Below are positions 29,287 to 43,707 of a stretch of 43,707 nucleotides of DNA, one piece after another. Source of the DNA: an uncultured bacterium (lineage in GTDB: Bacteria > JAGOEH01); the NCBI GenBank assembly GCA_964632485.1, contig CAZWDO010000015.1, positions 62,001-105,707 of the forward strand, in the 5' to 3' direction. The notes under the pieces are model-generated. The model saw only the letters and a list, made by a program, of their open reading frames with translations. It searched no databases and had not been told where the DNA came from. Every line of letters starts with the position of its first letter. The first letter of the stretch is position 1. A program made the translations under genes and the position numbers.

Positions 29287-30089
29287 TTCCCTCGAAAATC
29301 AATCCGTTGCCAGCACGGTTGATGGAACGGAAAGAGCTGGGATATAAAATTATTGAATGGAAACTGCAATTGGCCAGCGCGATCAATACCTTACCTGGTC
29401 AATTCGTGAATGTCACCGTCAATGAAAGTTTCGACCCCTTACTCCCCCGTCCTTTTGGCGTTGCAAATTTGGAGGGAACGATTCTTACTCTAATTTTTCA
29501 GATCGTTGGAAAAGGGACAATGCTCATGGCTTCATTGCCAGTGGGTTCAGAAATTAATATTTTAATGCCTCTTGGAAATAGTTTCCCCCCCTCATCACAA
29601 TCGGCCGATACTCTGGTTTTTCTGGTCGGAGGTATTGGTCTGCCCCCTCTACTCTACTATTTATACTATTATCGGAATCAATTACCTGAAAAGGTATATT
29701 TTTTTTATGGCGCCCAAAAAGCGGAACAATTGGTAAAAATTGATGAATTGCAAAAATTTCCCCTGGAACTAATCTTATGTACCGATACCCCGTCCGAATG
29801 GTATCAGGGTCGGGTAACGGAACGTTTCAAGCAGGAGTTACCGGTTATGTCAGGAGGGATTACTGTTTTGAGCTGTGGGCCCAATGCCATGCTATATGCG
29901 CTTCAAACCATGATTCGCGATCGGAATAATATTCAGGCCTGGGCTTCGCTGGAGACCAAAATGGCTTGCGGGATCGGCATCTGCAACGGATGTGTATGTA
30001 AGAGCCGCCGAGAGGAAAAATCCATTTACCAGAAAATTTGTACCGACGGCCCGGTTTTTAATTTGCGGGATATTATATGGACCGATTAA
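29283..30089 (+). CDS. pyrK: Dihydroorotate dehydrogenase B electron transfer subunit
   Basis: PGQFV, LPRPF, VGKGT, GGIGLPPL, CGPNAM and the 2Fe-2S motif MACGIGICNGC...ICTDGPVF. Confidence 0.94.
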   Translation: MIPSKINPLPARLMERKELGYKIIEWKLQLASAINTLPGQFVNVTVNESFDPLLPRPFGVANLEGTILTLIFQIVGKGTMLMASLPVGSEINILMPLGNSFPPSSQSADTLVFLVGGIGLPPLLYYLYYYRNQLPEKVYFFYGAQKAEQLVKIDELQKFPLELILCTDTPSEWYQGRVTERFKQELPVMSGGITVLSCGPNAMLYALQTMIRDRNNIQAWASLETKMACGIGICNGCVCKSRREEKSIYQKICTDGPVFNLRDIIWTD

Positions 30090-30991
30090 AAGCCAAAGTT
30101 GGCAATCTCAAGTTTATTAATCCCTTTATTCCGGCTTCCGGGTGTTTTGGCTATGGCAAGGAAATGCAGGAGATTGCGCCTTTAAATGAATGGGGCGCGG
30201 TACTGTCCAAGACGTTGACACTGGAACCCCGCGCTGGCAATCCCCCGCCCCGCTTGTTCGAGACGACGGCGGGACTATTAAATTCGATTGGTCTGGCTAA
30301 TCCCGGATTATCCGGTTTTTTAGAAAATGTTCTTCCCATCTATCAGGGGGGGGATTATCCGTTATTTATCAGTATCGCCGGCAATACCCGCGATGAATAT
30401 GTCGAGTTGGCCCGGCGTTTACTGCCCATCGAACGCATCAACGGCCTGGAAATCAATATCTCCTGCCCCAATATCCACCAGGGAGGATTGGCTTTCGGAG
30501 TGCATGAAGACACGGTTTTTGAGCTGATCAGCGAGATCCGATCGATTTGGGACCGTGAGTTATGGGTCAAACTGACTCCGAATGTGACCGATATCCGTCC
30601 GATAGCGCGAGCCGCCATCGAAGCCGGCGGGAATGCTTTAGTGATTGCCAATACTTACACTGGCATGGCGATTGATATACATACACAGCGCCCCGTTTTC
30701 GCCAATATCCAGGCCGGACTCTCAGGTCCAGCCATCAAACCCCTCACGCTGCTGAAAGTCTTTCAGGCGTATGCCGATCGTCCGGTTCCCATTATCGCCG
30801 TCGGCGGCATCTGCGGCGCGCGTGATGTGGTTGAGTATCTGCTGGCGGGAGCCTGCGCCGTGCAACTGGGTACTATCCTTTTCCGGCAACCCGCCATCCT
30901 TCTCGGCATTATCTCGGAATTGCTGCAATATATGGAAACCTACGGGATTTCCGAACTTTCCCAACTCATCGGCAACGCCCATACCCGCTGA
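30077..30991 (+). CDS. pyrD: Dihydroorotate dehydrogenase B catalytic subunit (family 1B)
   Basis: ASGCFGYG, GNPPPRL.ET, NSIGLANPG, EINISCPN, VKLTPNVTDI and GLSGPAIKP. Confidence 0.96.
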   Translation: MDRLKAKVGNLKFINPFIPASGCFGYGKEMQEIAPLNEWGAVLSKTLTLEPRAGNPPPRLFETTAGLLNSIGLANPGLSGFLENVLPIYQGGDYPLFISIAGNTRDEYVELARRLLPIERINGLEINISCPNIHQGGLAFGVHEDTVFELISEIRSIWDRELWVKLTPNVTDIRPIARAAIEAGGNALVIANTYTGMAIDIHTQRPVFANIQAGLSGPAIKPLTLLKVFQAYADRPVPIIAVGGICGARDVVEYLLAGACAVQLGTILFRQPAILLGIISELLQYMETYGISELSQLIGNAHTR

Positions 30992-31024
30992 TCTGATTTT
31001 TTTATCATTCCGGACTCATTTTTC

Positions 31025-31232
31025 GTCATTCCGGGCTTGACCGCCAGTCCGGCTCCGGACCCGGAATCCAGCTTTTCTTACCTCTGTCATTGCCGCACTT
31101 GATGCGGCATCCAAACCATTGTTGTCATTCCGGACTTGACCGCCAGTCCGGCTCTGGACCCGGAATCCACGGGTTATCACTCCTCCGTCATTCCGGGCTC
31201 CGACTGCCAGTGCGGCTCGCACCCGGAATCCA
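31025..31232. repeat. Cluster of four REP-like palindromic elements (GTCATTCCGG...CCGGAATCCA type)
   Basis: Units at 31025-31070, 31086-31113 (variant GTCATTGCCGCACTTGATGCGGCATCCA), 31124-31169 and 31187-31232, separated by 15, 10 and 17 nt. A partial copy lies at about 31004-31016. The cluster sits between convergent genes. Confidence 0.88.
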
Positions 31233-31325
31233 TCTTTATTTTCCCACAAGTATTCCCCATCCGTGCAAAATCAGTCGGGCGCCCGTGAGGCCTTCCTGAA
31301 TGAACGCCCGCGCCCCTCTGGGAGA

Positions 31326-32396
31326 TTACGGCAACGGCTCTCCGATGTGGCAGCGATAGACGGTCATTCCATCGAATGGCGCGTAAAAATAGAAACTCCC
31401 GCGGTCAATAACCCCCAGACTGCCGATGTCCTCGGGAACCGTGATCGTTTGAATCTTATTCAGTTCTACATCATACACGTCAATACGCAATAGATGCGCG
31501 AATTGAACATAAAGCCGGTTCCCGTCCAATTGAACGGACCGAAACATTCGAAATGGAGAAAAACTCGCCACATCGCCCTTGCGTTTCAAGTCCAGATTCT
31601 CCTCTTTAACATTCTCTACGGCCTCCTGCAATTCTTCCGCCAGCTCAAGCGCAATCGATTTGACCAATTTCCCCTCGGGGTTATATTTCTCAATTTTCGG
31701 AGGATAATGATAGACTAAAAACACTTCGTCCCGGGTTCGCGCCGCAAGCAGAACGCGTTTTTGCATCGATGCCGGTATTTCGCCCCGCGATAACTGGTCT
31801 TGAGTTTCCGTCATATTCATGATATAATTACTATCCGTTCCGGAAAACGTGGCGTATTTTTGGATAATTTCCCCAGACCGATCCGCCATGCAGGCCAGAT
31901 AATCCACCCGGAACCCTTCGGAGGTCAGCAGAAATCCGCTGTCATCCAGAAAAACGCATTGAAAGGCGGTACTTGGAAAATTTTTACCTTCAATAGTGCG
32001 CATATATTCGCCGTCGGCATGAAAAACCGTAATGATTCCCAAAGGAACTTGATAGGTGTAAAGAGTATCGTGAATAAGGCCGATGCCGGTAACTATCGCC
32101 TGAAACTCTCCCGGTCCGCTTCCCCGGTTGCCGATGGAGCGCAGATAGGTCAGGTTTTTATCGAACACCTTGATTTTCATATCTTTGATGTCGAGAATCC
32201 AAAAATTGCCCGCGGAATCGAGCGCGATATCCATAATCGCGCCCAGAAAGATGCCATTCGACTGAAACTCGGGGCCGAAAAGGGTGTCTGTGACGGTTAG
32301 GGATAATTCTTCCACCTTCCGGGTTGATTTTTCCTGCTTTGCGCAAAAAAGTTGGATGAACACCAAAATGATCATCAATAATGCGGTTTTTTTCAT
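31326..32396 (-). CDS. 6-bladed beta-propeller (NHL/TolB-like) probable lipoprotein
   Basis: Signal ending QLF|C; DIALDSAGNFWILD...IKVFDKN..YLRSIGNRGSGPGEF, the NHL-type GxxGxGPGEF motif; AAGGAGG SD. Confidence 0.85.
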   Translation of the reverse strand: MKKTALLMIILVFIQLFCAKQEKSTRKVEELSLTVTDTLFGPEFQSNGIFLGAIMDIALDSAGNFWILDIKDMKIKVFDKNLTYLRSIGNRGSGPGEFQAIVTGIGLIHDTLYTYQVPLGIITVFHADGEYMRTIEGKNFPSTAFQCVFLDDSGFLLTSEGFRVDYLACMADRSGEIIQKYATFSGTDSNYIMNMTETQDQLSRGEIPASMQKRVLLAARTRDEVFLVYHYPPKIEKYNPEGKLVKSIALELAEELQEAVENVKEENLDLKRKGDVASFSPFRMFRSVQLDGNRLYVQFAHLLRIDVYDVELNKIQTITVPEDIGSLGVIDRGSFYFYAPFDGMTVYRCHIGEPLP

Positions 32397-32434
32397 GATT
32401 GCCTCCTTTAAATGGTTATTCTGTATTTTTTTGA

Positions 32435-32463
32435 ATAATAATCGATTCCTTGCAGAAAGTCAA
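32435..32463 (-). promoter_or_regulatory. Putative sigma70 promoter of the distal beta-propeller gene
   Basis: TTGACT-17 nt-TATTAT, ending about 39 nt upstream of ATG 32396. Confidence 0.6.
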
Positions 32464-32477
32464 GCTTTATGATAAAT

Positions 32478-33053
32478 TCAAAATAAAAAAAATGGATTGA
32501 TATAATGCGTTATCAATGGCGCTACCCAATCAATTTCCTTGATTTCAAAATGAAGATGGGAAGTCGTCAGCATCGCATTCCCGCTATTACCCACATATCC
32601 GATGATCATGCCCTGAGCCGCCCGATCGTCAAGTTTGAGTTTCTTCTCAAAACTCTCCAGATGCGCATAATAATAGAGTCGATTATCCAATCCCAGTATT
32701 TGAATGTAATTCCCGCCCAAAGGATCGGTACCTCTGGCAACAATGTAACCAGCCGATGCGCTTCGAACGGGTGTTCCTCGATGGGCGAAAAAATCAATAC
32801 CCAGATGAAGGCGTCCATTAGGACGCGCTGCTTCGAACGTATCGTAGAGAGGTGCGGATATTTGACTCGCTTCAATCGGCAACATAATCGGTTTATGGGT
32901 GCGATGCATGTATTGATAATGTCGAATGATCAATAGGAATTTCGTCCGGCTGAAAACGAAAATCAAACCCGCAACTAAAATCCCGAATAAAGAAACTGCC
33001 AGCAGGTATTTAAAAATTTTTTTATGTATCAAAATCATAATGGGTTTATTCAT
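32478..33053 (-). CDS. Membrane-anchored M23 family metallopeptidase (start uncertain, 33038-33080)
   Basis: N-terminal TM helix, HLGIDFFA (HxxxD), GTPV, YYYAHL, IGYVGNSGNA and HLHFEI (HxH). Confidence 0.9.
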   Translation of the reverse strand: MNKPIMILIHKKIFKYLLAVSLFGILVAGLIFVFSRTKFLLIIRHYQYMHRTHKPIMLPIEASQISAPLYDTFEAARPNGRLHLGIDFFAHRGTPVRSASAGYIVARGTDPLGGNYIQILGLDNRLYYYAHLESFEKKLKLDDRAAQGMIIGYVGNSGNAMLTTSHLHFEIKEIDWVAPLITHYINPFFLF

Positions 33054-34533
33054 TACGCTGTTGATCTCTATTTTTATCAATTTGGCAGGAATCGATTCGA
33101 TAAATGTAATAAAAATAAACGCCGTCCATCAAGACACAGCGAACGCTATCGGGAATTGAATCGGTGAACCGGTCCAACGGATATGCCATTAAACTATCCG
33201 GCTGGCGGTTATCCATAACAAAAATTTTCTTATACGTATCCAGGTTGTTGGGAAATTCTCGAGCCGATGAGCATCCGATATGGTAGGTCATGATGTATTG
33301 GACACCATGGATCGTTTTTACAAAAGCATTTTCCCCAAACCAATCCTTTAAAAGAGATTGATATTTAATGACGGTTTTGACGTTGATAGGTGGTCCGAAA
33401 GAGTGATTGCCTTTGCCCCAGAGGATAAGCACTCCGATCAATGCGAACATATATACTCGGTTAAATATTTTCAGCAGACGGATTTTCAATGATACCGATT
33501 CAAATAAACCTAAACTGCTCACAAATGATAAATAAAAAATCCAAGGCGATGAACGAGTGAGACGAACGGCGAAGCCGCCCCATTCCTGATTCCAAACAGG
33601 GAGAATCATGAACAAATATACCGCCCATAGGATGACGATTCGTTTCTTTTCCTGTATAAAAACTGAAATGGAAATAACGGCAATTGAGAAAACAAAATAA
33701 ATCCAATACTCCATGTATTCGACATAATTGATCCAATGGAGATCACGCAGCCAATTCCAGGAAATCAGAAACGGCTGAATCTTACAAGTGGATAGCAGAA
33801 TGGAAAGCTTGGTGTAAAAATAGGCCCCATAAGAGAAGGACAGAATTCCCAAACCAAGCCCCAGGACTATGTATCCGTATCGTGAAATGTTTGAACAAGC
33901 TTTCAAATTGAAAAAAGCCAGATATGCCACTGAAAGAACAATGGCAAAGGGATGAATTAAAACCGCCAGAATCATAAGCGCCGCCGACATAAGCCAGCGG
34001 AAATGCAGGTAAACTGAAGATTTTGGCCGGCATGTCAATATGGCTATAGCCAGCGTCCCCAATGCCATGGCGCTTGCCTGTTTGAGGAATCCGAAATGGA
34101 AATACAGCAGGATGTTGGAATGAAACGCAGCCAGAAACAGATAAAAACTTTCTTTCCAGGAAGAGGTCGCGGTCAGCGCCAGCCACCCGATGGAAAACGC
34201 GAAGATCAGTAAGCTGAAAATAAATATTGTATTGAAAGCGGTCAGCGGTGTCAAGTGAAACAAGCGGGCCATCCACTCCGCCCAAGAGAAAAAGACAGAA
34301 AATGAATGGTAATAGCCTTGGTGATGGCTCAATCGGTACGAAATTTCCTGCAGATAATAAAACCCGTCCCAATCCATGGGCAATTTTGCAGCTACGATTG
34401 AGAAGTTGTCCAATTTAATGACAATCAGAATCCATAGAAAAAGTGTACTATCCAGCCAGGAAAATTTGGGTAGGATTTTATTCAGACAAAGTCTTTGAAA
34501 ATTTATTAGTACGGTAATCATTTTGTTATGCAT
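33046..34533 (-). CDS. Polytopic membrane protein, possibly GT-C-fold glycosyltransferase-like
   Basis: About 11-12 hydrophobic segments, an acidic DWDGFYY motif in the loop after TM1, and a soluble C-terminal domain. The ORF is well supported; the GT-C call is inference. Confidence 0.6.
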   Translation of the reverse strand: MHNKMITVLINFQRLCLNKILPKFSWLDSTLFLWILIVIKLDNFSIVAAKLPMDWDGFYYLQEISYRLSHHQGYYHSFSVFFSWAEWMARLFHLTPLTAFNTIFIFSLLIFAFSIGWLALTATSSWKESFYLFLAAFHSNILLYFHFGFLKQASAMALGTLAIAILTCRPKSSVYLHFRWLMSAALMILAVLIHPFAIVLSVAYLAFFNLKACSNISRYGYIVLGLGLGILSFSYGAYFYTKLSILLSTCKIQPFLISWNWLRDLHWINYVEYMEYWIYFVFSIAVISISVFIQEKKRIVILWAVYLFMILPVWNQEWGGFAVRLTRSSPWIFYLSFVSSLGLFESVSLKIRLLKIFNRVYMFALIGVLILWGKGNHSFGPPINVKTVIKYQSLLKDWFGENAFVKTIHGVQYIMTYHIGCSSAREFPNNLDTYKKIFVMDNRQPDSLMAYPLDRFTDSIPDSVRCVLMDGVYFYYIYRIDSCQIDKNRDQQRNE

Positions 34534-34539
34534 TAAAAA

Positions 34540-34779
34540 TTAATAGGATAACCAGCCACTATTGCAGTTGCATACTGCAAAAGTTCCATCTGAATATTTA
34601 CACTTAAAACCACATCCACTTACATATGCTTTTCCATTGCAAGAATAATCATTGGGGCAATCTTCTCCATGATTATTCAATAATTCTGAGCAGCTTATCG
34701 CCTTAATCGAATAAAAACTTCCAAATATGAAAAGAACTAAAGTTAAAAATACGATCGTTGTTCTTTTAAAGATTTTCAT
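34540..34779 (-). CDS. Small secreted cysteine-rich peptide (79 aa; about 52-aa mature region with 7 Cys)
   Basis: AAGGA SD; basic N-region and hydrophobic core ending IKA|; mature ISCSELLNNHGEDCPNDYSCNGKAYVSGCGFKCKYSDGTFAVCNCNSGWLSY. Fills the gap between co-oriented genes. Confidence 0.85.
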   Translation of the reverse strand: MKIFKRTTIVFLTLVLFIFGSFYSIKAISCSELLNNHGEDCPNDYSCNGKAYVSGCGFKCKYSDGTFAVCNCNSGWLSY

Positions 34780-34823
34780 GATTCATCCTTTCAGTCAATT
34801 GGTTTATGATTACCGTACTAAAA

Positions 34824-35900
34824 TTATTTTATATTTGCTGAAAATATATTGATACATTCTGCTCCTTTGAAATCTAAATAATCTATGCAATAGAAGAATA
34901 GTTTCTGACAATTCTCATTCATTGTGAATTCCATTCCAAGATTCGCAAGATTGTATTCTTTATTCTCAAAATAATAATTGGCAATACAATTTTCATTAAA
35001 ATCTATCTCAATAATCCAGGATTGAGTAATGCAAAATATAAAAATATGATTTCCAAATATTCTAAAATTACTGAAAAGAGAAGAGTAACTCATTCTCCGC
35101 GCTGGCTTATCAAATTTCAAGTTCATTTCCTCCAGTTGATTGAACAATTCAATTTTAGGCCGAATTTCCTTGACCAGCTTGCCATCTTTTGAATATATGA
35201 GCAGTTTGTTGAGAAATCGGTAAAAGATAAAAATGGAATCACCGGCAATATCTGCTTCGATTTCGTTCAACAAAGAGTTTTTATGCAGAATCTGCTTGCC
35301 GATTCCGCCTGTTTTACGGCCTGATGAATCATAAACTGAGAGATAAGGGCGTTCTTTTTCCTTGAACTCAAGGTCGGGACGGGTCAAAATATGGTTGTCG
35401 TCAAGAACCTCAAACACACGGTTAAAATTCGGATCGCGATACCGCCACAGAAACTTGCCGGTTGAATCAAATTTATTGATACCATGTCCATCATTAATAA
35501 AAAGGAAATTGGAAGGAGAGCGATCGCAGCTAAATGGCTGGCGTAATTCACCGGGGCCATCCCCCATGCCGGATATTATTCTTGTCGAATCATAGTTTCG
35601 GCTGATCCAGTGAATACAATGCCGCTGATTATCGATAATGTAGAATTCGCCATTGTCCATCCGCACGAAATCGCTTCCCGCACCCATAAAATTTTCCTTA
35701 CTGTCCCCGATTTCCGCCGTGGATATAACCCGTTCCAGTTTAAGGGGAATCCAGTTCTTTTGTTGTTTATAATAGTTTTCATATAATTTGTTTACTTTCT
35801 GCTGGTACTCTTCCAGTATTTTTTGGTTGGGTTCCCCGCAAAAAACAATCATTAATAATACGCTTATCAAGGCCACCGATGCTTTGGTATCAACTTGCAT
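34824..35900 (-). CDS. 6-bladed beta-propeller (NHL/TolB-like) probable lipoprotein
   Basis: ATG 35900 follows GGAG; hydrophobic signal ending IVF|C; GEFYIID...GMGDGPGELRQP, FDSTGKFL, VYDSSG and IYSKDGKLV blade motifs. Confidence 0.82.
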   Translation of the reverse strand: MQVDTKASVALISVLLMIVFCGEPNQKILEEYQQKVNKLYENYYKQQKNWIPLKLERVISTAEIGDSKENFMGAGSDFVRMDNGEFYIIDNQRHCIHWISRNYDSTRIISGMGDGPGELRQPFSCDRSPSNFLFINDGHGINKFDSTGKFLWRYRDPNFNRVFEVLDDNHILTRPDLEFKEKERPYLSVYDSSGRKTGGIGKQILHKNSLLNEIEADIAGDSIFIFYRFLNKLLIYSKDGKLVKEIRPKIELFNQLEEMNLKFDKPARRMSYSSLFSNFRIFGNHIFIFCITQSWIIEIDFNENCIANYYFENKEYNLANLGMEFTMNENCQKLFFYCIDYLDFKGAECINIFSANIK

Positions 35901-35928
35901 TGATTTCTCCCGGTTCAAGTTAATGACT

Positions 35929-36918
35929 TTATTGTTGGTTCTTCATTTCCTGGACGACATCGAATGAGGCAAAAAACTGATTTAAGCAGTTACAATCCGA
36001 TTGCATGACGTTTTCAATCAATCCATCCGAATTGATCAGCATGACAACTTGATTCCAAACCGCTTGACCATGCGTCAGCATATACTTGTCCCATTGTTCC
36101 TGAAATAATGAATCCGCCAGCTCCACACAGAAATCCAATTCCATATTTGCTTGAAGATTGTCGCGGTCATTTTGCGTATAATTCTGCGGCAGAATGATAA
36201 TCGGCATGATCTCGGGATGGCCGGCCCTGAGTTCTTTCAATCGCAAGACCAATTTCCCGCTCGGGCAAGACAAGCATACGTTCAATAACAAACATAAGAC
36301 AAAATGATCTTGATCAGAATGGCGAAACTTTATTCGCTCTATCTGGCTAAACCATTCAATATCTCGAATATTCATTCCCGGCGAAATATAATCCTCGACG
36401 CTGATTGATGTCCCATTAATGAATTTCTTCAGCAGTGCCAGCACGTCACTTTGATTGTTCGCGCGGACATATCCGCTTCTCAACATTTTTCCGGCTTTAT
36501 CATAAATATGAAAGGTTTGGCAACAATGAGGCGCATGAAACAAATCCTGGTAGAGTTCATATTTTTCGTAAATAAAATGAATTCGGGGAATATCGGAATC
36601 CATCAGTTTGATAGACCCTGCCTCATTTTTAACGAACGCTATCATCTGGAGCTTGGAACTATCAAACAATGAAATTACAGTATCAATCAGTTTTTTTTGA
36701 TAATCCAGCCGCAAATCAGTGAATTGAACATAAATATAATGGTTTTTGAGATCAGAACGGGAAAATTTTCGACCCTGGCTGTCCGTATAAGATTCATCGG
36801 GAAAATAATTGTAGGTATCTTTCGAAGGTTCGGCTAGATACTGATAAAAAAAGTATAAACAAATTATCAATAAAAATACTACTAATACTGACCCAATATA
36901 TTTTTTATTCCACCTCAT
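35929..36918 (-). CDS. Membrane-anchored thioredoxin/redoxin-like Cys-rich protein (start 36918 or 36924)
   Basis: N-terminal TM helix. Redoxin-like DSQGRKFSRSDLKNHYIYVQF and TFHIYDKAGK. Second domain has CLSC (CXXC), LADS and VMLINSDGLI. Extra HCCQ and DCNC motifs. Confidence 0.6.
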   Translation of the reverse strand: MRWNKKYIGSVLVVFLLIICLYFFYQYLAEPSKDTYNYFPDESYTDSQGRKFSRSDLKNHYIYVQFTDLRLDYQKKLIDTVISLFDSSKLQMIAFVKNEAGSIKLMDSDIPRIHFIYEKYELYQDLFHAPHCCQTFHIYDKAGKMLRSGYVRANNQSDVLALLKKFINGTSISVEDYISPGMNIRDIEWFSQIERIKFRHSDQDHFVLCLLLNVCLSCPSGKLVLRLKELRAGHPEIMPIIILPQNYTQNDRDNLQANMELDFCVELADSLFQEQWDKYMLTHGQAVWNQVVMLINSDGLIENVMQSDCNCLNQFFASFDVVQEMKNQQ

Positions 36919-36957
36919 ATCCACATTCCTTAAAAAATATGAAGCTAATTATCCGCT

Positions 36958-37022
36958 CTTGCGCCCCTCGTTGCTTGCGCCCCTCGTTGCTTGCGCCCCT
37001 CGTTGCTTGCGCCCCTCGTTGC
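36958..37022. repeat. Perfect 16-bp tandem repeat, four copies
   Basis: (CTTGCGCCCCTCGTTG)x4 plus C; GC-rich within an AT-rich intergenic region. Confidence 0.97.
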
Positions 37023-37070
37023 AATTTTATTCTGCATTGATTGATCCTTTCATAATACTAATAATTTTAG

Positions 37071-37100
37071 ATAATATATAAAATAATATCATTTTGTCAA
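37071..37100 (-). promoter_or_regulatory. Putative sigma70 promoter for the redoxin-propeller-peptide-membrane protein-M23 operon
   Basis: TTGACA followed by TATATT (16-nt spacer) or TATTAT (18-nt spacer), with an A-tract upstream. Confidence 0.55.
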
Positions 37101-37115
37101 GTCTTTTTTTTTTGT

Positions 37116-40100
37116 TCATGAAAAAAATTTATTCTGCTCATTTTTCGATCCGGGGATTTCCATGGCGTATGGCTGACGTTTGGCTCGCCAGGCGGCGATT
37201 AACAGAAGACACGCCGGCAAAACGAAGAGACCGAACAGCACCGAGCTGAACAGACCTCCGATAGCGCCCAGGCTGAGGGTGTACCAGAGATCGTTTTCCT
37301 TGCCGCTACCCGGCATGACCATCGGCAGCAACCCGGCGATGGTAGTCAGAGAGGTCATCAGAATCGGCCGAATGCGATCACAGCCTGCCCGGATCAGCAG
37401 GTCCTCCAAACTGCTAAAACCGCCGCTCCGCCTCAGTACGCGCACATGGTCCAGATAAATAATAGCGTTATTCACGACAATTCCCAACAACAGCACCATA
37501 CCGATAAACGCCGCCTGATTGAATACCGTGTCAGTCAGATAGAAGATCAGAAACACGCCGATCAGGGCCACGGGAATAATCATGAAGACCAGCAAGGGAT
37601 AGCGGAACGATTCATAGAGTCCCGCCAATACCATATACATCAAAAGCAGAGCCAGCAGCATCATGCGCCAGCGCTCTGCTGTTTTATCCTCGTCATGCCA
37701 AAAACTATAACCCGATCCGCGGGTAATGGCATATCCCGGCGGCAAAGCGATGCTATTGACGAATCCCTTGATGAATTTTTCCGTAAATTCCCAGGGCGCC
37801 AGATAATCGAAGGAGATAACTCGATAATAACGCTGATCCTCGCGTTCGATTTCTCTCGGCACTGCATAATCCGCCACATCCATCAATTCCTTCAGTCGGG
37901 CTTTTTTCTCCAGGGAATAGCGCAAGGGAAGTTCCTTTAATTGGAAAAAATCGAAGGTCCGGTAATTTTCGCTTTGCATGGCATAATTGACCTCATCGCT
38001 CCCCAGTTTCAATTTCTGACGATATAGATAAGTGAAAAGATAGGGATTGAGTTCGGCGATCAGTTGCGTGGCGTCCACGCCGCGTTCCCGGGCCGCTTCG
38101 CGGTTGATGCGCAGGGAGGTCTGGCGGCCAGGCGGCGCATAATACCGTCGTGACAGATTATGTTCCACATTCTGTACCCGGGGATACTGTTCCAGCGCCT
38201 TGCGGATGTTCAGGCATAACTGGTCCAGATCGTGATAGTTGTAGCCGCTGACGATGAGGCGGTTCTGCATGGTCATACCCCCGCCGCCGGTGGAAAATCC
38301 GGGGCCCAATCCCTGCACCGAAATGACGGCGTTGCCGATGCGCGTGGCGCGCAGTATCAGTTTCTCCTTGACGATAAACGGCGGCGAGCAGTGCTGAGCT
38401 TCCTCGGTAAACCGCACTTCCATGTGGGCGTATTGCGGATAGACCTGACCTCGGACCTGAAAGATACCGCTTTCGCCGGAGATGGTTGCCTCCATATCCT
38501 TCAAAATGCGGTTCGTTTCTTCTATATCCGTACCCATGGGCATGCGGACCGTCGCATCGACCCGGGTTTCCTCGCCCCAATCGCGAATTTCGCCGCGATC
38601 CACATAACGGTAAAAAAGATACATAGACCCGCCGAACAGATGCTCCAGCGCTGGCCGCGCCCGGTTTACCCACTCGGCGTCCATCCACTCGTTGTAGGTA
38701 TCACGGATAATTCCCGCCAGGGGAAGATTTGCGGGCGGTTCGGGCAGGGATTTGGGGATCAGCCAAAGCGGATAGCCCAGAAACCAGAATACGATGAAGA
38801 GCGTGGTTTTAGGATAGCGCAGGGCAAGCGCGGCGCCGCGGCGATAGCCGGCATGCAGTCCTCGGGTGAGTCGGCCGGATTCAAACTGTTCTGTATCGGC
38901 CTTTTTCAGTGAACGGGGACCTCGCATACCGGCAAAAAAAGTTGCCGGTATGAAAAAAAAAGCTGTAATGAGCGACAATATCAGGGCCGTCATCACCGTT
39001 ACCGCAAAGGGAGTATAATATAGCTTCAGATCATCCATCAGGTAGAGAAAGGGCAGTAACACGGCAATCGTAGTGAGAGTCGCCGCGAAAAGCGGAACAA
39101 TGATCTCGCGCGTTCCCTGCGCGCAGGCGCGCAGAGCATCCAGGCCCAGTTGGCGGTGCCGAAATATATTCTCCGTGACCACGATCGAATTGTCCACCAG
39201 AATGCCAAAACCCAACGCAAGTCCTGCCAGGGTGATCAGATTTAAACTGTATTTGAAAACGAAAATCAACAGCAAAGCGCTCAGAGTGCTGATCAATATG
39301 GAAAGTTGCACATACAACGCGGCGCGGATATGGGTAAGGAACAGCAGCAGGGTCAGAAATACAGCAAAGAAACTGAATATGGCGCGGAAAATGAAGGTGC
39401 GCAAATTTTCCCGTATCTGGATGCTCTGATCGTCTTCCTTGAGCAATTCGAATCCCTGGGGGAAACGGGATTTTAACCGGGCGATGGCCGCTTCGACCCG
39501 ATCGGCGGTCGCCACAGTATTGGAACCGCCCTCGCGTTCGAGCTGAAGCATGATGGTGTTTTTGTGGTTGATGCGGGTATAAGAACCCGCGGGAGAAATG
39601 GTATCGATTATCTCGGCGACATCATCAAGGCGGATCAGTTGCGCGCCCCGACGGGCGATGATGAGTTGTTTCAGTTCCCACAGCGATTGCCGATAATCGC
39701 GGATAATCATTCCCGCCTGGCTGCCGTTTTGGAGCGCTCGTCCGCAACTGATCTCAATCGCCGCATTACGTAACGCCGAAGCCACCACACTATTATTGAG
39801 GCCATACTGTTCAAGCTCGCGGTCTCGCAACCCAATACGTATCTGCCGCTCGCGCCCGCCCACGATCTCGGCGCCGGCAACGCCGGCCAATCCGCTGAGG
39901 GCCGGGAGAATATATTTACGCGCATATTCGCTCAACCGCATTTCATCCCAATCGCCCAGTATATGATAACTCATAAACGATGATGTCTTGAACTGTTCCG
40001 GAACATAGGCCGTAATCCGCGGCGGCGCGACCTGGGACGGGAACCGGTCCCGCAGGAATCCCAAATGCTCCTGAACGACAAACCGAGTATAATCCACGTC

Positions 40101-40391
40101 AGCCTGGGGGTCCAGATCCAGGGTCACTGACGAAATGTTATTATAAGAAAAGGATTTGATCTTTTTGATGCCCGGAATGACAGCCATTTCGCTTTCGATG
40201 AGGGAGGTGACGTTGGCTTCCACCACGGCCGGCGAGGCGCCGCCATAGGAAGTGGTGATCGTCAAACGGGGATAATCCGCGGAAGGCACGATTTCCGTGG
40301 GTAGATTCCAGATGGCGAACAGCCCGGCCAGTGAATAAGCCAGGGCAATGGTCCAGACCGCGATGGGACGTTGAATGACGCTTTCAATCAT
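37116..40391 (-). CDS. RND (AcrB/AcrD/AcrF family) efflux permease
   Basis: 1091 aa; RPIA N-terminus, GASPAVVEANVT, LNLITLAGLALGFGILVDNSIVV, AATLTTIAVLLP, YESFRYP, GIVVNNAI and RIRPILMTSLTTIAGLLP. Confidence 0.96.
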   Translation of the reverse strand: MIESVIQRPIAVWTIALAYSLAGLFAIWNLPTEIVPSADYPRLTITTSYGGASPAVVEANVTSLIESEMAVIPGIKKIKSFSYNNISSVTLDLDPQADVDYTRFVVQEHLGFLRDRFPSQVAPPRITAYVPEQFKTSSFMSYHILGDWDEMRLSEYARKYILPALSGLAGVAGAEIVGGRERQIRIGLRDRELEQYGLNNSVVASALRNAAIEISCGRALQNGSQAGMIIRDYRQSLWELKQLIIARRGAQLIRLDDVAEIIDTISPAGSYTRINHKNTIMLQLEREGGSNTVATADRVEAAIARLKSRFPQGFELLKEDDQSIQIRENLRTFIFRAIFSFFAVFLTLLLFLTHIRAALYVQLSILISTLSALLLIFVFKYSLNLITLAGLALGFGILVDNSIVVTENIFRHRQLGLDALRACAQGTREIIVPLFAATLTTIAVLLPFLYLMDDLKLYYTPFAVTVMTALILSLITAFFFIPATFFAGMRGPRSLKKADTEQFESGRLTRGLHAGYRRGAALALRYPKTTLFIVFWFLGYPLWLIPKSLPEPPANLPLAGIIRDTYNEWMDAEWVNRARPALEHLFGGSMYLFYRYVDRGEIRDWGEETRVDATVRMPMGTDIEETNRILKDMEATISGESGIFQVRGQVYPQYAHMEVRFTEEAQHCSPPFIVKEKLILRATRIGNAVISVQGLGPGFSTGGGGMTMQNRLIVSGYNYHDLDQLCLNIRKALEQYPRVQNVEHNLSRRYYAPPGRQTSLRINREAARERGVDATQLIAELNPYLFTYLYRQKLKLGSDEVNYAMQSENYRTFDFFQLKELPLRYSLEKKARLKELMDVADYAVPREIEREDQRYYRVISFDYLAPWEFTEKFIKGFVNSIALPPGYAITRGSGYSFWHDEDKTAERWRMMLLALLLMYMVLAGLYESFRYPLLVFMIIPVALIGVFLIFYLTDTVFNQAAFIGMVLLLGIVVNNAIIYLDHVRVLRRSGGFSSLEDLLIRAGCDRIRPILMTSLTTIAGLLPMVMPGSGKENDLWYTLSLGAIGGLFSSVLFGLFVLPACLLLIAAWRAKRQPYAMEIPGSKNEQNKFFS

Positions 40392-41622
40392 GGCGCGTGG
40401 TTGCAGGTTCGTTGATGATTTTCACCGGCGCGTCGTGGGCCAGCGCGAAATGGCCGTCCACGATCACCTCTTCACCCACTTTCAGATCAAAGGCCGAGGA
40501 GATCACTTCGATCCACTCATCGTTTTCCAGGCCGGTCTCCACATAACACCAGAAAGCCTTGCCCTCGCGCACCACGAAAACCAATTGACGCTGATCCCGC
40601 ACAATCACCGCCGGCCGTGGCACCCGCATACGATCGGGATAACGGTTCACCGCTACCCGTACCGTACCGAACATACCGTCCCGTAGTTTCCCTCCCCGAT
40701 CAAAAAGATCGGCGAATACATAACAGATGCGGTTATTGCGATCAATCCGCGGATTGATGCCGCTGATACGGGCGCGAAATTCTTCCCCGGGAAAAGCGCT
40801 GAATTGGGCGAATACTTCTTCACCCAGACGGATATGACCGATATCGCTTTCCAATACCTGCAGTTTCAGTCGTAGCTTATTCAGATCGACCAGAGTAAAA
40901 AGCGTTTGACCGGGACTCAGCCAATCCCCGACATGAATCAGACAATCACCGATTGTTCCGTTGAAGGGAGCCCGGACACAACATCCCTCGACATCCAGCA
41001 ATGCCCGCTCGTAACGGGCTTCGGCCGCCGCCAGGCCACTGTTCTGGGCCAGGGCTTCCTCGCGATTGCAGCCGGAGAGTACGCGAGCGGCTTCGTAATC
41101 ACGGGCGATGGGACGAAAAGCGCGCTCATCCATCTCCCCGTTTCGATATGCTGCCCGGGCGGTTTCATAGCGCGCATTCAATAACGAATCGACCTCCCCT
41201 GTTCCGTGCGTCGCCGGTCGATCCCGTTTCAGCAGGGCATAATCGATACGCGCTTTCACCAGATTGCCCTCAGCATCTTTCAATATCGATAAAAACTCGC
41301 GATTGTCCAACCGCAGCAGAACCTGCCCCGAATCCACGGTCATCCCTTCCCTGATCATCAGTTGAATAACCGGCGCGCTGATTCGCGTCTTGATTTCCGC
41401 GCAATTAACCGCTTCAGTAACACCTCCGGCCGAAACGGTTTTCACCAGTTCCCCACGGATAACCGGATGGGCGCGTATGGCGACGGGTTGGATTTCCACC
41501 TGTTGGATTTCCCGTTCATCGTTTGCCGGCCGGTTTTCCCGCGCATGGGAAAACCATAGATATATCCCGCCCAGACCGATTAAAATAACTATGACAATGA
41601 AAACTTTAATCAACTGCCGCAT
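40384..41622 (-). CDS. RND periplasmic adaptor (membrane fusion protein)
   Basis: N-terminal TM helix, lipoyl-like REGMTVDSGQVLLRLD and VRAPFNGTI, helical hairpin, LRDGMFG and VETGLEND. Confidence 0.95.
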   Translation of the reverse strand: MRQLIKVFIVIVILIGLGGIYLWFSHARENRPANDEREIQQVEIQPVAIRAHPVIRGELVKTVSAGGVTEAVNCAEIKTRISAPVIQLMIREGMTVDSGQVLLRLDNREFLSILKDAEGNLVKARIDYALLKRDRPATHGTGEVDSLLNARYETARAAYRNGEMDERAFRPIARDYEAARVLSGCNREEALAQNSGLAAAEARYERALLDVEGCCVRAPFNGTIGDCLIHVGDWLSPGQTLFTLVDLNKLRLKLQVLESDIGHIRLGEEVFAQFSAFPGEEFRARISGINPRIDRNNRICYVFADLFDRGGKLRDGMFGTVRVAVNRYPDRMRVPRPAVIVRDQRQLVFVVREGKAFWCYVETGLENDEWIEVISSAFDLKVGEEVIVDGHFALAHDAPVKIINEPATTRHD

Positions 41623-43656
41623 GATTGGCTCCTTCCCCGGTTGAATCGTTAATCAATAATTGCGAATGATGTTCGTCAATGGATCGTTTATCATCAGAAG
41701 TGAACAATTCATAGAAAACAGGAATCAGAATCAGAGTTAGAAAGGTACCGCTGAAAAGTCCGCCCATGATCACCAGGGCCATGGGATATTGCATCTCCGC
41801 GCCGTGACCGCGCGCCAAGGCCATGGGCAACACCCCCAGCATGGTGGTCAGCGTGGTGATCACAATCGGACGGAACCGTTTGCGACTGGCGTCCAGGATC
41901 GCCTCCCGAACACCCATCCCCTGCCTCCGGTTCTGGTTGATAAAATCGATTTTTATGATATCGTCGTTCACTACAATCCCGGTCAACACCACAAAACCAA
42001 TACCGGAAATAATATTCAGACTGGTTCCGCACAGAGCCAGCGCCCAAATTGCGCCGATCATGCCGTAGGGCACGGAAAACAGAATGAGAAAAGGGTATTT
42101 CAACGATTCGAACTGCGCGGCCAGAATCAGGAAGATTAGCAGAACAGACAGGATGAATGCCCATTTCAGCGATTGAAAAGAAGAGTCGATTTCCTGCTGT
42201 TCACCGCCGGAAATTATGCGTACACCGGATGGGATAGCTAAGGAAGCGAGGCGTCGATTGATGCGTCGCATAGCTTCGGCGCGCGATATATTATCCAGAC
42301 TGGCGTATAGCCGGATCGTTTCCTGCTGGTCTTGACGCAGGATATGTTCGGGCGCCTGCGTTTGGCGGATATGGATCAGTTCCCGCAGGGGAACGGGCAT
42401 CTGGTTGACTATTAGGAATCGCTGATATAAATCGCGCCAACTGTCGCGCCACTCAAGGGAGGGCCGTACCAGAATATCGATAGCGCGGTCCATTTCACGC
42501 ATCCGGGTGGCGACCAATCCCTCGCTTGCGGATTGCAGGAGTTGTGTGATGCGGGCCGGATCGATATCCATCATAGCCGCGCGCTCACGGTCAATCGAAA
42601 TCTCGTATTGCGAAATCCCCGGCAGATAGGAAAGACGCGCGTCGCGGCACCAGTCGAATTCCTTGAGGGAGGATAGCGCGGTCTGCGCCACGGAAAGAAT
42701 TTCCCGAGAATCGGTTCCACTGATATCGAGCTGCAGGTCGCGCCCCACAGCGCCCACCATTTCCATGAAAGTGGGATCCCCGCTTTGGAACCAGGAGCGG
42801 TACTCATAGTGCCGTGGTAATAAAGCGCGTAAACGGGCGATATACGCTTCATTGGAGATATCGACACCGGGTCGGCGGCGAATAAAGAGTACCGCCTGAT
42901 GTTCGCCCGTGATTTCATCCGTCTGCAAAGCGCTTTCCAGCGGCCCGATCCGGCTGAAAACTGAAACAACAGTCGGTTCAGTTAATAGCTGCGTCTCAAT
43001 GGCCCGCGCGGTTTCCGCAGTCTGAGTTACAGTGGCATCTACCGGCAATTCCAGATAGAGCCGAAATTCATCCTGAGTGAATGATGGCAGCAGGCGCCGC
43101 GCCAATTGCCACCCCAACCCCAGGGTAAGGACAAACAGAGCGACCAGTAGCAGCAGGGTTTCTTTTTTACGCGCCAGGCATAGTAACAGGAGTTCATGAT
43201 ACTGATCGTAAATCCATTCAAAACCGACATTGAAGCGGCTGAAAACAAAACCGGTCAGACGCTTGTATACTCTTTGAACCGGCAGAAGCAGTCGGTAAAC
43301 GAATTGATTGTTGAATATGGGAATATGGAAAAAACTTCGGTCGGATCTATATTTTTTCTTTTGGCCGATGGGTCCGGTGATCGGCAGTGTCAGGTCCTGA
43401 AACGATTGTCGGCCTTTAAATCGGCTGGCCAGTACGGGTAGCAGCAGCAACGCCGTCAGAATTGAGGTCAGCAGGGAAAAAGTCAGGGTCAGCGAATAAT
43501 CGCGGAACAGGCGCCCAGCCACGCCTTGCACGTAGATCACGGGCAGAAATACCGCGCAGGTAGTAAAGGTCGAGGCGAAGATCGGCAGAGCTACTTCGCG
43601 CGCGCCCTGATGCGATGAAACAATCAAATCCAGCCCTTCCTCACGCAATCTGAAAC
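41606..43656 (-). pseudogene. Second RND permease, 5'-truncated (roughly the first 400 codons missing from the window)
   Basis: RND homology starts abruptly at FRLREEG...GAREVALPIFASTFTTCAVFLP, just after TM4, and continues through QFESLKYP and RFRPIVITTLTTMLGVLP. Upstream sequence is non-RND with an in-frame TAA inside the window. Confidence 0.8.
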
Positions 43657-43707
43657 GGATCTTCCAAGCTCGAAATGGGGTCAACTTGTTTTAAGTCAAT
43701 TTATTAA
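43657..43707. mobile_element. Possible insertion-sequence terminus interrupting the RND gene
   Basis: Junction begins GGATCTTCC, resembling GG(C/T)TCTT ISL3-type ends. It coincides with loss of RND coding and with the end of the window. No transposase is visible. Confidence 0.4.

Follow-up and report, generated by a model that had tools for sequence, protein, structure and literature searches.

Nine co-oriented genes, all on the (−) strand, lie at one end of the window, a 43,707-nt stretch of DNA from an uncultured bacterium, and raise the question of whether they form a single system and which of them make up its core. In order, they encode an RND permease (RND1), a periplasmic adaptor (MFP), a second RND permease (RND2), a redoxin, a propeller lipoprotein (propeller 1), a Cys-rich secreted peptide, a polytopic membrane protein, an M23 metallopeptidase and a further propeller lipoprotein (propeller 2). 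The original prediction, which placed the peptide at the centre of one system, described this layout accurately. Gene order and shared orientation were confirmed, and the junctions are mostly short or overlapping, with three overlaps (RND1/MFP by 17 nt, MFP/RND2 by 8 nt, and membrane protein/M23) and gaps of 10 nt between redoxin and propeller 1, 44 nt between propeller 1 and peptide, and 6 nt between peptide and membrane protein; only the spacings from RND2 to redoxin (191 nt) and from M23 to propeller 2 (81 nt) are longer. As predicted, each of the nine products carries either a hydrophobic N-terminal segment or multiple transmembrane (TM) segments, and family-model searches found no radical SAM, YcaO, Lan or C39 domain among the nine proteins.

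RND1 (41606..43707, − strand) is truncated because the window ends where contig C15 ends; its N-terminal ~400 aa fall past the contig end and were not found elsewhere in the same assembly. The C-terminal part that remains, at least 692 aa, matches PF00873 over positions 500–1020 only (9.8e-116). The MFP (40384..41622, − strand) matches TIGR01730 (2e-48; 165 bits, cut-off 94.9) and HlyD_D23 (1.1e-22), and RND2 (37116..40391, − strand; 1091 aa) matches PF00873 at 1.9e-161. We found that RND1, MFP and RND2 share 57%, 51% and 50% identity with the co-linear operon of a genome of the same family, G001, and 42.5%, 44% and 44% with the operon at locus L055, as against only 25–33% with paralogues in the window's own genome. 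The gene order RND-MFP-RND is common to the window, G001 and L055, and the other relatives have MFP-RND-RND. Judged by sequence, the window pump is a distinct RND-MFP-RND subfamily. Like the window, MdtABC combines one adaptor with two paralogous permease genes in one operon, and MdtB (PDB 9lyq) is the closest solved chain to RND2 (3.7e-78). The NCBIfam MdtB/MdtC models also match, but at scores far below the family cut-offs (e.g. 449 vs 1250 bits). TM4 reads VDN in both window permeases, while the RND1 TM10 motif is GIVVNDDIIKID, with VND at the position where RND2 has VNN (VVNN); at the places aligned to RND2, MdtB has VDD (TM4) and VKKN (TM10). This unusual proton-relay make-up means that the pump's substrate range need not equal that of AcrB. 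The window pump, known here from its genes, further differs from MdtABC in gene order and in being coupled to propeller and redoxin genes, a coupling that, to our knowledge, MdtABC lacks.

The pairing of pump and propeller recurs. At E ≤ 1e-45, MFP orthologues were present in 15 of 401 genomes, including G000, and the other 14 were assessed. A propeller gene lay in the same cluster as an MFP-type pump in 10 of these 14, spanning seven families (G001, G390, G287, G399, G171, G324, G204, G253, G093 and G036), against a chance expectation of ~0.27 genomes. Three had the orthologous pump without an adjacent propeller (G218, G017 and G337), and in G186 the contig is cut. The same pairing was seen in four of five informative loci from named MAGs (Acidobacteriota L098, Fibrobacteraceae L099 and L101, and Krumholzibacteria L102), the KSB1 locus L097 having a pump without a propeller. 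Thus the claim holds that more than chance brings the propeller, redoxin and dual RND/MFP genes together, and the RND module is linked to propeller genes rather than usually unlinked, the outcome named beforehand as refuting. In most other genomes one propeller gene immediately precedes that of the adaptor, and locus L053 carries five tandem propellers between its MFP and RND genes; the window propellers lie downstream of the pump. Viewed from the propellers, an RND module was present in only 3 of 20 inspected neighbourhoods, hand-picked from the best matches rather than sampled at random, and the rest held radical SAM or unrelated genes, so the propeller family is not dedicated to pumps. A literature search found no description of the propeller-pump pairing.

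Base composition changes sharply behind the pump. GC content drops from ~0.54 to ~0.37 at about position 37100, within the 191-nt gap between RND2 (GC 0.537, vs 0.438 genome-wide) and the redoxin, and a promoter-like site (37071..37100, − strand; TTGACA-16/18-TATATT/TATTAT, 11 of 12 matches, by consensus only) sits at this step. The low-GC block has six genes, four of them ORFans: the redoxin, propeller 1 and the membrane protein each retrieved only themselves from 5.8 billion proteins, and the peptide retrieved only itself and three spurious repeat proteins from 1.84 billion representatives. Together with the GC step, the gap and the promoter-like site, these ORFans could indicate a fortuitous juxtaposition, the block being a separately acquired or hypervariable island beside an unrelated pump and functioning by itself, for example in the cell wall or at the surface; what follows RND2 in G001 is indeed unrelated (NamZ, PMT_2 and aldolase). 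However, low-GC genes of the same kinds (a small Cys protein, a propeller and a redoxin; GC 0.30) flank the orthologous pump of G001 on its opposite side, the propeller-pump adjacency far exceeds the chance expectation, and within the window's own 4.45-Mb genome both strong stand-alone matches to the propeller-family profile, which are the two window propellers and also rows of the alignment behind that profile, sit at this locus. The only other matches there, one 1337-aa protein and one weak hit (2.3e-6), are not beside an RND match. We therefore consider juxtaposition unlikely. The locus is built in two layers, a conserved core of pump and propeller and a lineage-specific low-GC block behind the pump.

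Propeller 2 (31326..32396, − strand; 356 aa) has a lipoprotein-type signal and matches PF17170 (DUF5128; 1.7e-7; 31.2 bits, cut-off 22.9). Its AF2 model, built with 40 relatives in the alignment (pLDDT 78.6, pTM 0.76), was closest in Foldseek to the six-bladed NHL domains of Brat (4e-14), Thin and TRIM71 and to the Bacteroides fragilis exported protein 4raa. Propeller 1 (34824..35918, − strand; 364 aa; GC 0.374) reaches no Pfam family above threshold (NHL 0.18); five other propellers share its signal-peptide Cys and its GxGPGE blade motif. Six-bladed propeller lipoproteins of the DUF5128/BF3164 type occur beside NVEALA peptides in Bacteroidota. Propeller 2 resembles these in passing the PF17170 threshold, in its lipoprotein signal and in the likeness of its model to 4raa, and the small signal-bearing peptides that adjoin propeller genes there have counterparts in G001 and at locus L064; by contrast, the window peptide is not NVEALA, propeller 1 fails the Pfam model, and the conserved partner is an RND pump. 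A literature search found no paper on either family name. Both window propellers also weakly match ScyF, the NHL protein of scytonemin biosynthesis (4.8e-4 for propeller 1), and in G002, a genome of the same order, a propeller is flanked by two radical SAM genes. RND pumps normally carry small molecules, and taken together these points could indicate a small-molecule pathway in which the propellers, like some other six-bladed propellers, are lyase- or lactonase-like enzymes, here making or modifying a thiol-sensitive metabolite that the pump exports, with the peptide unrelated or a regulator. Yet the NHL domains of Brat, Thin and TRIM71 have been solved with or without bound RNA, and we read them as binding scaffolds rather than enzymes. 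Across 20 pump-linked propellers only the GxGP blade motif is invariant, with E nearly so, and no His, Asp or Cys column is; nor does any biosynthetic enzyme gene recur with the module in the inspected loci. A small-molecule pathway thus seems distinctly improbable.

The redoxin (35929..36924, − strand; 331 aa) is a membrane-anchored tandem thioredoxin-like protein with NvCLSC in its C-terminal half. It has no Pfam match even at E ≤ 10, and its Atlas model resembles two-domain TlpA/Redoxin clusters (TM-score 0.43–0.51). The C-terminal half aligns with four small redoxins of propeller loci, N-x-C-x-x-C being invariant, and a profile from this alignment matches thioredoxin-like PDB chains (E 0.002). 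TM-anchored CxxC proteins are encoded upstream of RND1 in G001 (178 aa) and L094 (191 aa; Redoxin 2e-4), a third (180 aa) adjoins propellers at L055, and contig C54 of the window's own genome ends in a redoxin remnant; all align with the window redoxin on the same motif. Redoxins of propeller loci match the Redoxin, AhpC-TSA and TlpA families by structure and, weakly, by profile. Like TlpA/ResA-type proteins, the window redoxin is anchored at its N-terminus and has a CxxC that follows a hydrophobic strand, and the four small redoxins also have a cis-Pro-like loop, but the window protein differs in joining a Cys-less domain to the CLSC domain. Proteins of the TlpA/AhpC type are usually reductases, so this likeness does not favour the oxidative, disulfide-folding role originally given to the redoxin. 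Thioredoxin-like and propeller genes are separate neighbours at at least five loci. NHLRC2, a cytosolic thioredoxin-plus-NHL protein, likewise combines a thioredoxin-like domain with a six-bladed NHL propeller, but no such fusion was present in any inspected locus, eight long ORF loci included.

The peptide (34540..34779, − strand; 79 aa, 7 Cys; GC 0.317) has a signal-like N-terminus and an RBS-like AAAGGA motif 7 nt upstream of its ATG. Cleavage is predicted between IKA and ISC, leaving a mature part of 52 aa with all 7 Cys, as against 1.75 ± 1.25 Cys codons in shuffled sequence, where seven or more were reached in 18 of 20000 cases. The ORF is more than chance, and in a screen for small secreted Cys ORFs it was the only one in the whole window. 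It matched nothing in Pfam (E ≤ 10) or the PDB. Peptide, propeller and redoxin also occur together elsewhere: G001 encodes a 109-aa small secreted Cys protein that adjoins a propeller and a redoxin just upstream of its orthologous pump, and at L064 one 94-aa small Cys protein that passes the screen lies beside a propeller and a redoxin. Neither is homologous to the window peptide. Our crude screen gave three convincing cases in 21 loci against four or five other ORFs passing elsewhere, a weak enrichment beside propellers. The expected co-occurrence with Cys peptides was therefore found, weakly, in two other genomes, but most propeller-pump loci have no such peptide, which argues that propeller and pump, not the peptide, form the core; nor is the peptide conserved, as the search of representatives had shown.

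These observations bear directly on the model first proposed, in which the redoxin sets the disulfides of the Sec-exported peptide cargo, the propellers hold it as chaperone, receptor or immunity protein, and the two-permease RND pump expels it across the outer membrane while M23 opens the wall locally, the product being a bacteriocin-like or signalling peptide. Every component faces the periplasm, the peptide-propeller-redoxin triad recurs in G001 and L064, and the unusual proton relay of the pump subfamily leaves room for a substrate range other than that of AcrB. A precedent with the same logic, useful only as an analogy, is described in PMC5985334 for enterotoxin STII, a small Sec-delivered, Dsb-processed Cys protein that the tripartite MacAB-TolC takes from the periplasm; however, MacB is of the ABC type, not an RND permease, and that export involves no propeller. 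Against the model also stand the TlpA/AhpC-type rather than DsbA-type look of the redoxins and, from family-model searches, the lack of an outer-membrane factor gene in the window's cluster. A literature search found no RND-dependent export of a folded protein, and we know of none. The membrane protein (33046..34533, − strand; 495 aa) shows six strong hydropathy peaks followed by a ~120-aa non-TM C-terminal part and belongs to no Pfam or NCBIfam family. Its earlier label as GT-C-like could not be supported: PMT_2 gave no match at E ≤ 10, while four PMT_2 paralogues elsewhere in the genome were matched, and its AF2 model (pLDDT 43.8) is too low to use. The membrane-anchored LytM-type M23 protein (32478..33080, − strand; PF01551 2.2e-19; 69.9 bits, cut-off 28.7) has one TM segment (residues 26–44), and its active site is predicted to be intact, as both HLGID (residue 92) and HLH (residue 175) are present. 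Among the inspected loci, M23 and the membrane protein occur only in the window's genome, which further weakens the cargo model. We regard that model as improbable, and RND export of the folded 52-aa peptide, its chaperoning by propellers and local wall opening by M23 as conjecture. As a single system, the original prediction stands for the linkage of propeller, pump and redoxin and falls for the peptide core and GT-C.

From the gene content, protein families and recurrent pairings observed, we slightly favour the view that the locus belongs to a conserved envelope module of FCB and Acidobacteriota. The module would comprise a tripartite-type RND pump, with one adaptor and two paralogous permeases, and periplasmic six-bladed NHL/DUF5128 propeller (lipo)proteins, joined in the closest relatives by membrane-anchored CxxC thioredoxin-fold proteins. 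To this the window would add its lineage-specific low-GC block, namely a second redoxin-propeller pair, the 7-Cys peptide, the polytopic membrane protein, M23 and a further propeller. We infer binding, the way in which redox equivalents flow and any peptide-pump link. Much as the periplasmic accessory protein of some metal pumps does, the membrane-tethered propellers would bind a periplasmic ligand and hold it for the pump or present it to the pump, and the redoxins may govern the thiol state of this ligand or that of the propellers themselves. The 79-aa peptide and other small secreted Cys proteins would then be ligands of the propeller-redoxin pair that vary from lineage to lineage, and not the cargo that defines the module.

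The nine minus-strand genes were recovered in the set and order originally predicted: RND1 (truncated by the contig end), the adaptor gene MFP, RND2, redoxin, propeller 1, the 79-aa peptide gene, a membrane protein gene, M23 and propeller 2. RND1 overlaps MFP by 17 nt and MFP overlaps RND2 by 8 nt; gaps of 10, 44 and 6 nt separate redoxin from propeller 1, propeller 1 from the peptide gene, and the peptide gene from the membrane protein gene, which overlaps M23. Propeller 2 lies 81 nt after M23 and is the final gene ahead of a convergent pyrD-type operon. In the intervening spacer (30998-31232), a 51-nt GC-rich repeat occurs three times (two copies being 92% and 63% identical to the reference one), along with a shorter 19-nt repeat family; these repeats account for a local GC peak of 0.56, and they may constitute a small repetitive extragenic element. 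As expected, all nine products have an N-terminal hydrophobic segment or multiple TM segments. Pfam and NCBIfam recognised both permeases, the adaptor, M23 and propeller 2, and gave no significant match to the redoxin, propeller 1, the peptide or the membrane protein. Neither database found radical SAM, YcaO, LanBC/LanM or C39 ABC proteins among the nine, in agreement with the view that this is not a classical RiPP cluster.

The pump operon (37116-43707) has a GC content of 0.53-0.55 vs 0.44 for the genome, which places its genes in the top few percent of the genome's 5-kb windows, and the six genes behind RND2 (redoxin to propeller 2, here called the block) range from 0.32 to 0.47. The step sits in the 191-nt gap behind RND2, where we found a sigma-70-type promoter match (11/12), a consensus match only in a host that may use other promoters. 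The genome assembly comprises 66 contigs and 4.45 Mb at 43.8% GC, with an estimated completeness of 98%; the window is the final 43,707 bases of its contig C15. Four N runs in the window (15586-15595, 15940-15959, 27484-27493 and 29058-29067), all outside the nine-gene locus, indicate that the contig is a scaffold. A chimeric assembly is an unlikely source of the GC step: 29068-43707 is free of N runs, and the orthologous operon of the relative G001 shows equal contrast. The lineage is thinly sampled, G001 being of the same family and G002 of the same order among 40 comparison genomes, with the others related at the level of domain only.

Within the block, the M23 peptidase was confirmed by PF01551 (69.9 bits vs a cut-off of 28.7), and both zinc-ligand motifs are intact (HLGID at residue 92, HLH at residue 175). 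The 331-aa redoxin gave no Redoxin, AhpC-TSA, Thioredoxin or other Pfam match at E<=10. It carries a CxxC motif (NvCLSC) after a hydrophobic strand, at the start of helix 1, and its C-terminal half aligns with four small redoxins of propeller loci, N-x-C-x-x-C being invariant in 5/5. Two such relatives scored 32.3 bits (L048) and 21.6 bits (L094) against Pfam Redoxin, above and below its cut-off of 26.6. A profile of the five-redoxin alignment matched thioredoxin-like chains in the PDB weakly (E 0.002), and the Atlas model of the window protein (pTM 0.52) resembles two-domain TlpA/Redoxin clusters (TM 0.41-0.51). The membrane protein had been labelled GT-C-like, and this label lost its footing. 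The protein had no Pfam or NCBIfam match, and a PF13231 (PMT_2) scan of the genome at E<=10 matched four other genes and not this one; with a single-sequence AF2 model too poor for reading a fold (pLDDT 43.8, pTM 0.30), the assignment is therefore unsupported. Its only hint of GT-C, read by eye, is a D-x-D-x-x-Y-Y after the first TM segment.

The 79-aa ORF is preceded by an RBS-like AAAGGA and encodes a Sec-type signal with likely cleavage after IKA. All 7 Cys fall within the mature part of 52 residues; when its coding stretch was shuffled, 1.75 +/- 1.25 Cys codons resulted, and 7 were reached in 18 of 20,000 cases. This excess suggests that the ORF is probably a real gene. The odd Cys count could be explained by three disulfides and one free or lipidated Cys30, one possibility among others; residues -3 to -1 of Cys30 are A-I-S. 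Defensin-like peptides with the cysteine-stabilised alpha-beta motif have CxxxC followed by CxC in a canonical six-Cys order. The spacing of C56-x3-C60 and C70-x-C72 recalls such peptides, but the canonical order is not kept because no Cys lies between C60 and C70 and three Cys precede C56. Conservation, on which the original prediction had counted, was not found: an exhaustive phmmer search of 1.84 billion representatives returned the peptide itself and three tandem-repeat proteins, whose scores stem from the repeats and which we judged spurious on reading. There was no PDB sequence match to the peptide and no Pfam match to its mature part at E<=10, and by the Pfam NVEALA model at the same threshold it is not a member of that family. 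In a word-based search of 5.8 billion proteins, and within the sensitivity of that method, propeller 1, the membrane protein and the redoxin matched nothing but their own sequences. Since these searches gave no homologues by which the block could be tested elsewhere, we shifted the test to protein families and to the pump.

A search with the adaptor retrieved 15 of 401 genomes at E<=1e-45, the window's own included. A propeller is encoded in the pump cluster in 10 of the 14 others (G001, G390, G287, G399, G171, G324, G204, G253, G093 and G036), and these represent seven families, as G093, G253 and G399 share one and G171 and G324 another. Three genomes (G017, G337 and G218) have OEP-MFP-RND-RND or MFP-RND-RND only, with no propeller, and in G186 the contig ends inside the OEP gene. 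From the PF17170 match count and genome sizes, about 0.27 genomes would be expected by chance. It had been set beforehand that finding the RND module normally unlinked from propellers would speak against the original prediction; with 10/14 against about 0.27, the two are linked. We also scanned named genomes with a three-row alignment query, which gave 14 loci; two probable duplicates of loci counted before and three distant loci (22-26% identity) were left out and nine were analysed. Among the five informative loci, a propeller lies beside the pump in four, from Acidobacteriota (L098), Fibrobacteraceae (L099 and L101) and Krumholzibacteria (L102), and the fifth, from KSB1 (L097), has none. 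In a Calditrichaceae locus too short to show a propeller (L094), a 191-aa anchored CPSC protein ends exactly at the start of RND1. The closest named relative of the window's adaptor is annotated 'MAG: Candidatus Delongbacteria bacterium' (51% identity).

The pump itself is unusual in sequence. RND2 spans PF00873 in two stretches (the best covering positions 1-547 of 1021, 1.9e-161), and RND1 spans positions 500-1020, the remainder lying beyond the contig end; a search of the assembly did not recover this N-terminal part. The adaptor belongs to the RND_mfp family (TIGR01730, 165.1 bits vs a cut-off of 94.9). Both permeases fell far short of the NCBIfam cut-offs, the top score being 449 bits for RND_permease_2 vs a cut-off of 1250. 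A search of genome contigs with RND2 and one of metagenome contigs with the RND1 fragment gave no relative. The nearest solved chain to RND2 is MdtB (3.7e-78), which has VDD in TM4 and VKKN in TM10 at the RND2-aligned places, whereas RND1 and RND2 both have VDN in TM4 and have VND and VNN, respectively, in TM10. Neither permease thus has the two Asp in TM4 and the Lys in TM10 of the proton relay, and the VDN plus VND/VNN pattern is kept in nearly all relatives examined (RND1 n=14, RND2 n=13). By these motifs, RND1 and RND2 are unlike each other and also depart from the canonical proton relay, which is compatible with a heteromeric pump with division of labour but does not prove one. No OEP domain of an outer-membrane factor was detected among the nine window proteins; related clusters with OEP genes are L050, L089, L090, L086 and L084.

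The closest view of the pump's neighbours comes from G001, where RND1-MFP-RND2 is 57, 51 and 50% identical to the window's operon and also GC-richer than its surroundings (contig C63, loci L013/L014: 0.57-0.60 vs about 0.5 for neighbours). Downstream of RND2 are unrelated genes for NamZ, a PMT_2 glycosyltransferase and an aldolase. Directly upstream of RND1 is a three-gene module with a GC content of 0.30, which encodes a signal-bearing protein of 109 aa whose mature part has four Cys, a DUF5128-family lipoprotein of 374 aa (2.3e-12) and a 178-aa membrane-anchored protein with CMSC. Across the window and G001, the accessory genes are GC-poorer, at 0.30-0.41. The three gene kinds common to the window and G001 therefore flank an orthologous pump on opposite sides, with similarity detectable in the propellers only. 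Contig C54 of the window's assembly holds, at its end (L107, 4460-4842), a remnant homologous to the G001 redoxin (41% over 88 aa, CVKC). An RBS-like motif and start are in one frame and the thioredoxin-like part is in another, and there is no N-terminal anchor, so either decay of the copy or misassembly may be the cause. Because the homologous redoxin gene of G001 precedes RND1, C54 may precede the truncated RND1 end of the window.

Propeller 2 passes PF17170 (DUF5128) with 31.2 bits vs a gathering score of 22.9; propeller 1 had no PF17170 match, and NHL matched it only at 0.18. An AF2 model of propeller 2, built on an alignment of 40 relatives, is an all-beta propeller (pLDDT 78.6), and Foldseek placed it with the six-bladed NHL fold of Brat (4.3e-14, TM by target 0.75). 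The other top matches were the NHL domains of Thin and TRIM71 and an exported protein from B. fragilis whose function is unknown. We take the NHL domains of Brat, Thin and TRIM71 to be binding scaffolds. Across 20 pump-linked propellers the sole invariant feature is a GxGP blade motif, with an E nearly invariant, which mildly suggests that the propellers bind rather than catalyse. Scanning the window's genome with the 40-member profile recovered only the two window propellers, which are themselves part of that alignment, a protein of 1337 aa and a single weak match, and neither of the last two adjoins any RND match of the genome. The 1337-aa open frame (contig C9, 9634-13644; family profile 2.3e-29) also matches PF17170.

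Starting from the propellers gave a more varied picture. PF17170 matched in 114 of 401 genomes, mostly via an NHL-like blade motif, and the best matches in open frames of ~270-530 aa provided 20 hand-picked, non-random neighbourhoods. Propellers were marked by a profile of six family members, and 170 of 205 neighbour ORFs of >=90 aa were scanned with Pfam, after 23 ORFs at >6 kb from a propeller and another 12 on the outer side had been dropped. An RND module lies beside propellers in 3/20 neighbourhoods (L050, L053 and L055) and CxxC thioredoxin-fold genes occur in 3/20 (L048, L055 and L064); the remaining neighbourhoods have unrelated genes. In L053 (G287, contig C1, 3-14551) one strand encodes a propeller and the adaptor, then five tandem propellers and a pair of RND permeases, so that propeller genes are inside the pump operon. 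In L055 three propellers are followed by RND-MFP-RND, and this pump is orthologous to the window's (42.5, 44 and 44% identity vs 25-33% for paralogues in the window's genome). No thioredoxin-NHL fusion was evident among the long ORFs of 8 loci. Separately, a locus of G002 (L018, contig C115, 232-5177) has a DUF5128/NHL lipoprotein gene flanked by a radical SAM/SPASM gene and another radical SAM gene, with two unknown proteins next and a GC content of 0.25-0.31 throughout; it has the look of a RiPP-like locus and shares its propeller family with the window. At two loci of G399 (L050, 8406-11276; L060, 6865-8022) a propeller adjoins a ~385-aa methyltransferase-like protein, the L050 copy of which carries CPFC/CPVC, and an ABC exporter is encoded further upstream in L050.

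We then asked how often small secreted Cys proteins accompany these genes. We screened 21 loci crudely for ORFs that are 40-130 aa long, begin with a signal-like segment, have >=4 mature Cys and are not nested in a long ORF; eight ORFs passed. Three are convincing and propeller-adjacent (the window peptide, the 109-aa protein of G001 and a 94-aa protein of L064), and the remaining five look spurious or unrelated. L064 (G284, contig C25, 1-5830) encodes, in order, a small secreted protein, a propeller, an anchored CxxC protein, a propeller, the 94-aa Cys protein, a propeller, an anchored NCNAC protein and a thioredoxin-like domain. The last runs into a membrane part truncated by the contig end; a CcdA/DsbD-type partner is a tentative lead here, its Pfam matches being sub-threshold only. 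The proposed co-occurrence with Cys-rich peptides was thus weakly borne out: the triad of peptide, propeller and redoxin recurs, with unrelated peptides, in G001 and L064, but most pump-propeller loci are without it.

Together, these neighbourhoods provide a solid comparative case that a distinct RND-MFP-RND subfamily keeps company with NHL/DUF5128 propellers in distant lineages and, among the closest relatives of the window, with anchored thioredoxin-fold proteins as well. We read the window block as a lineage-specific elaboration of this pump-propeller-redoxin theme. The reading we favour is that the propellers would be tethered binding modules serving the pump; the redoxins would govern the thiol state of either the ligand or the propellers, and the variable Cys peptides would be ligands of the propeller-redoxin pair. 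The original prediction instead made the Cys-rich peptide the cargo that the RND pump exports. Export of STII by MacAB-TolC, described in PMC5985334, is one precedent in logic, although MacAB-TolC is an ABC-type pump, unlike the window's RND pump, and no observation in this analysis speaks for peptide export specifically; we consider it unlikely. Slightly more doubtful still is its general form, a modular periplasmic system of the FCB group in which NHL-propeller lipoproteins and thioredoxin-like proteins would handle fast-evolving, Sec-exported Cys-rich peptides, to be expelled by a dedicated RND pump that has two permeases and a non-canonical proton relay, the 7-Cys peptide of the window being one cargo. 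If an RND pump did expel such peptides, it would be the first RND-driven secretion route for a folded peptide.

In our preferred reading, with the propellers as binding modules of the pump, the novelty is an RND pump with unrecognised partners. The peptide, plausibly a real gene but an orphan, is the weaker element and makes a weaker case than the pump and propellers do. A full-text literature search, with subscription journals outside its coverage, turned up neither a paper on NVEALA or DUF5128 nor one that connects NHL repeats with RND pumps. Although RND pumps rank with the most thoroughly studied machines of the envelope, only a few, small accessory proteins are known for them. A six-bladed propeller (lipo)protein would add a new class of partner to RND pumps, in a pairing spread over Delongbacteria-like, Calditrichota, Fibrobacterota, Krumholzibacteria and Acidobacteriota MAGs, and would open a first way into the function of the DUF5128/NHL lipoproteins of FCB bacteria, which form large, uncharacterised families. 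The return of thioredoxin-like genes at these loci, with secreted Cys-rich peptides at some of them, suggests that a thiol-dependent process runs in the periplasm, which would be testable in cultivable carriers.
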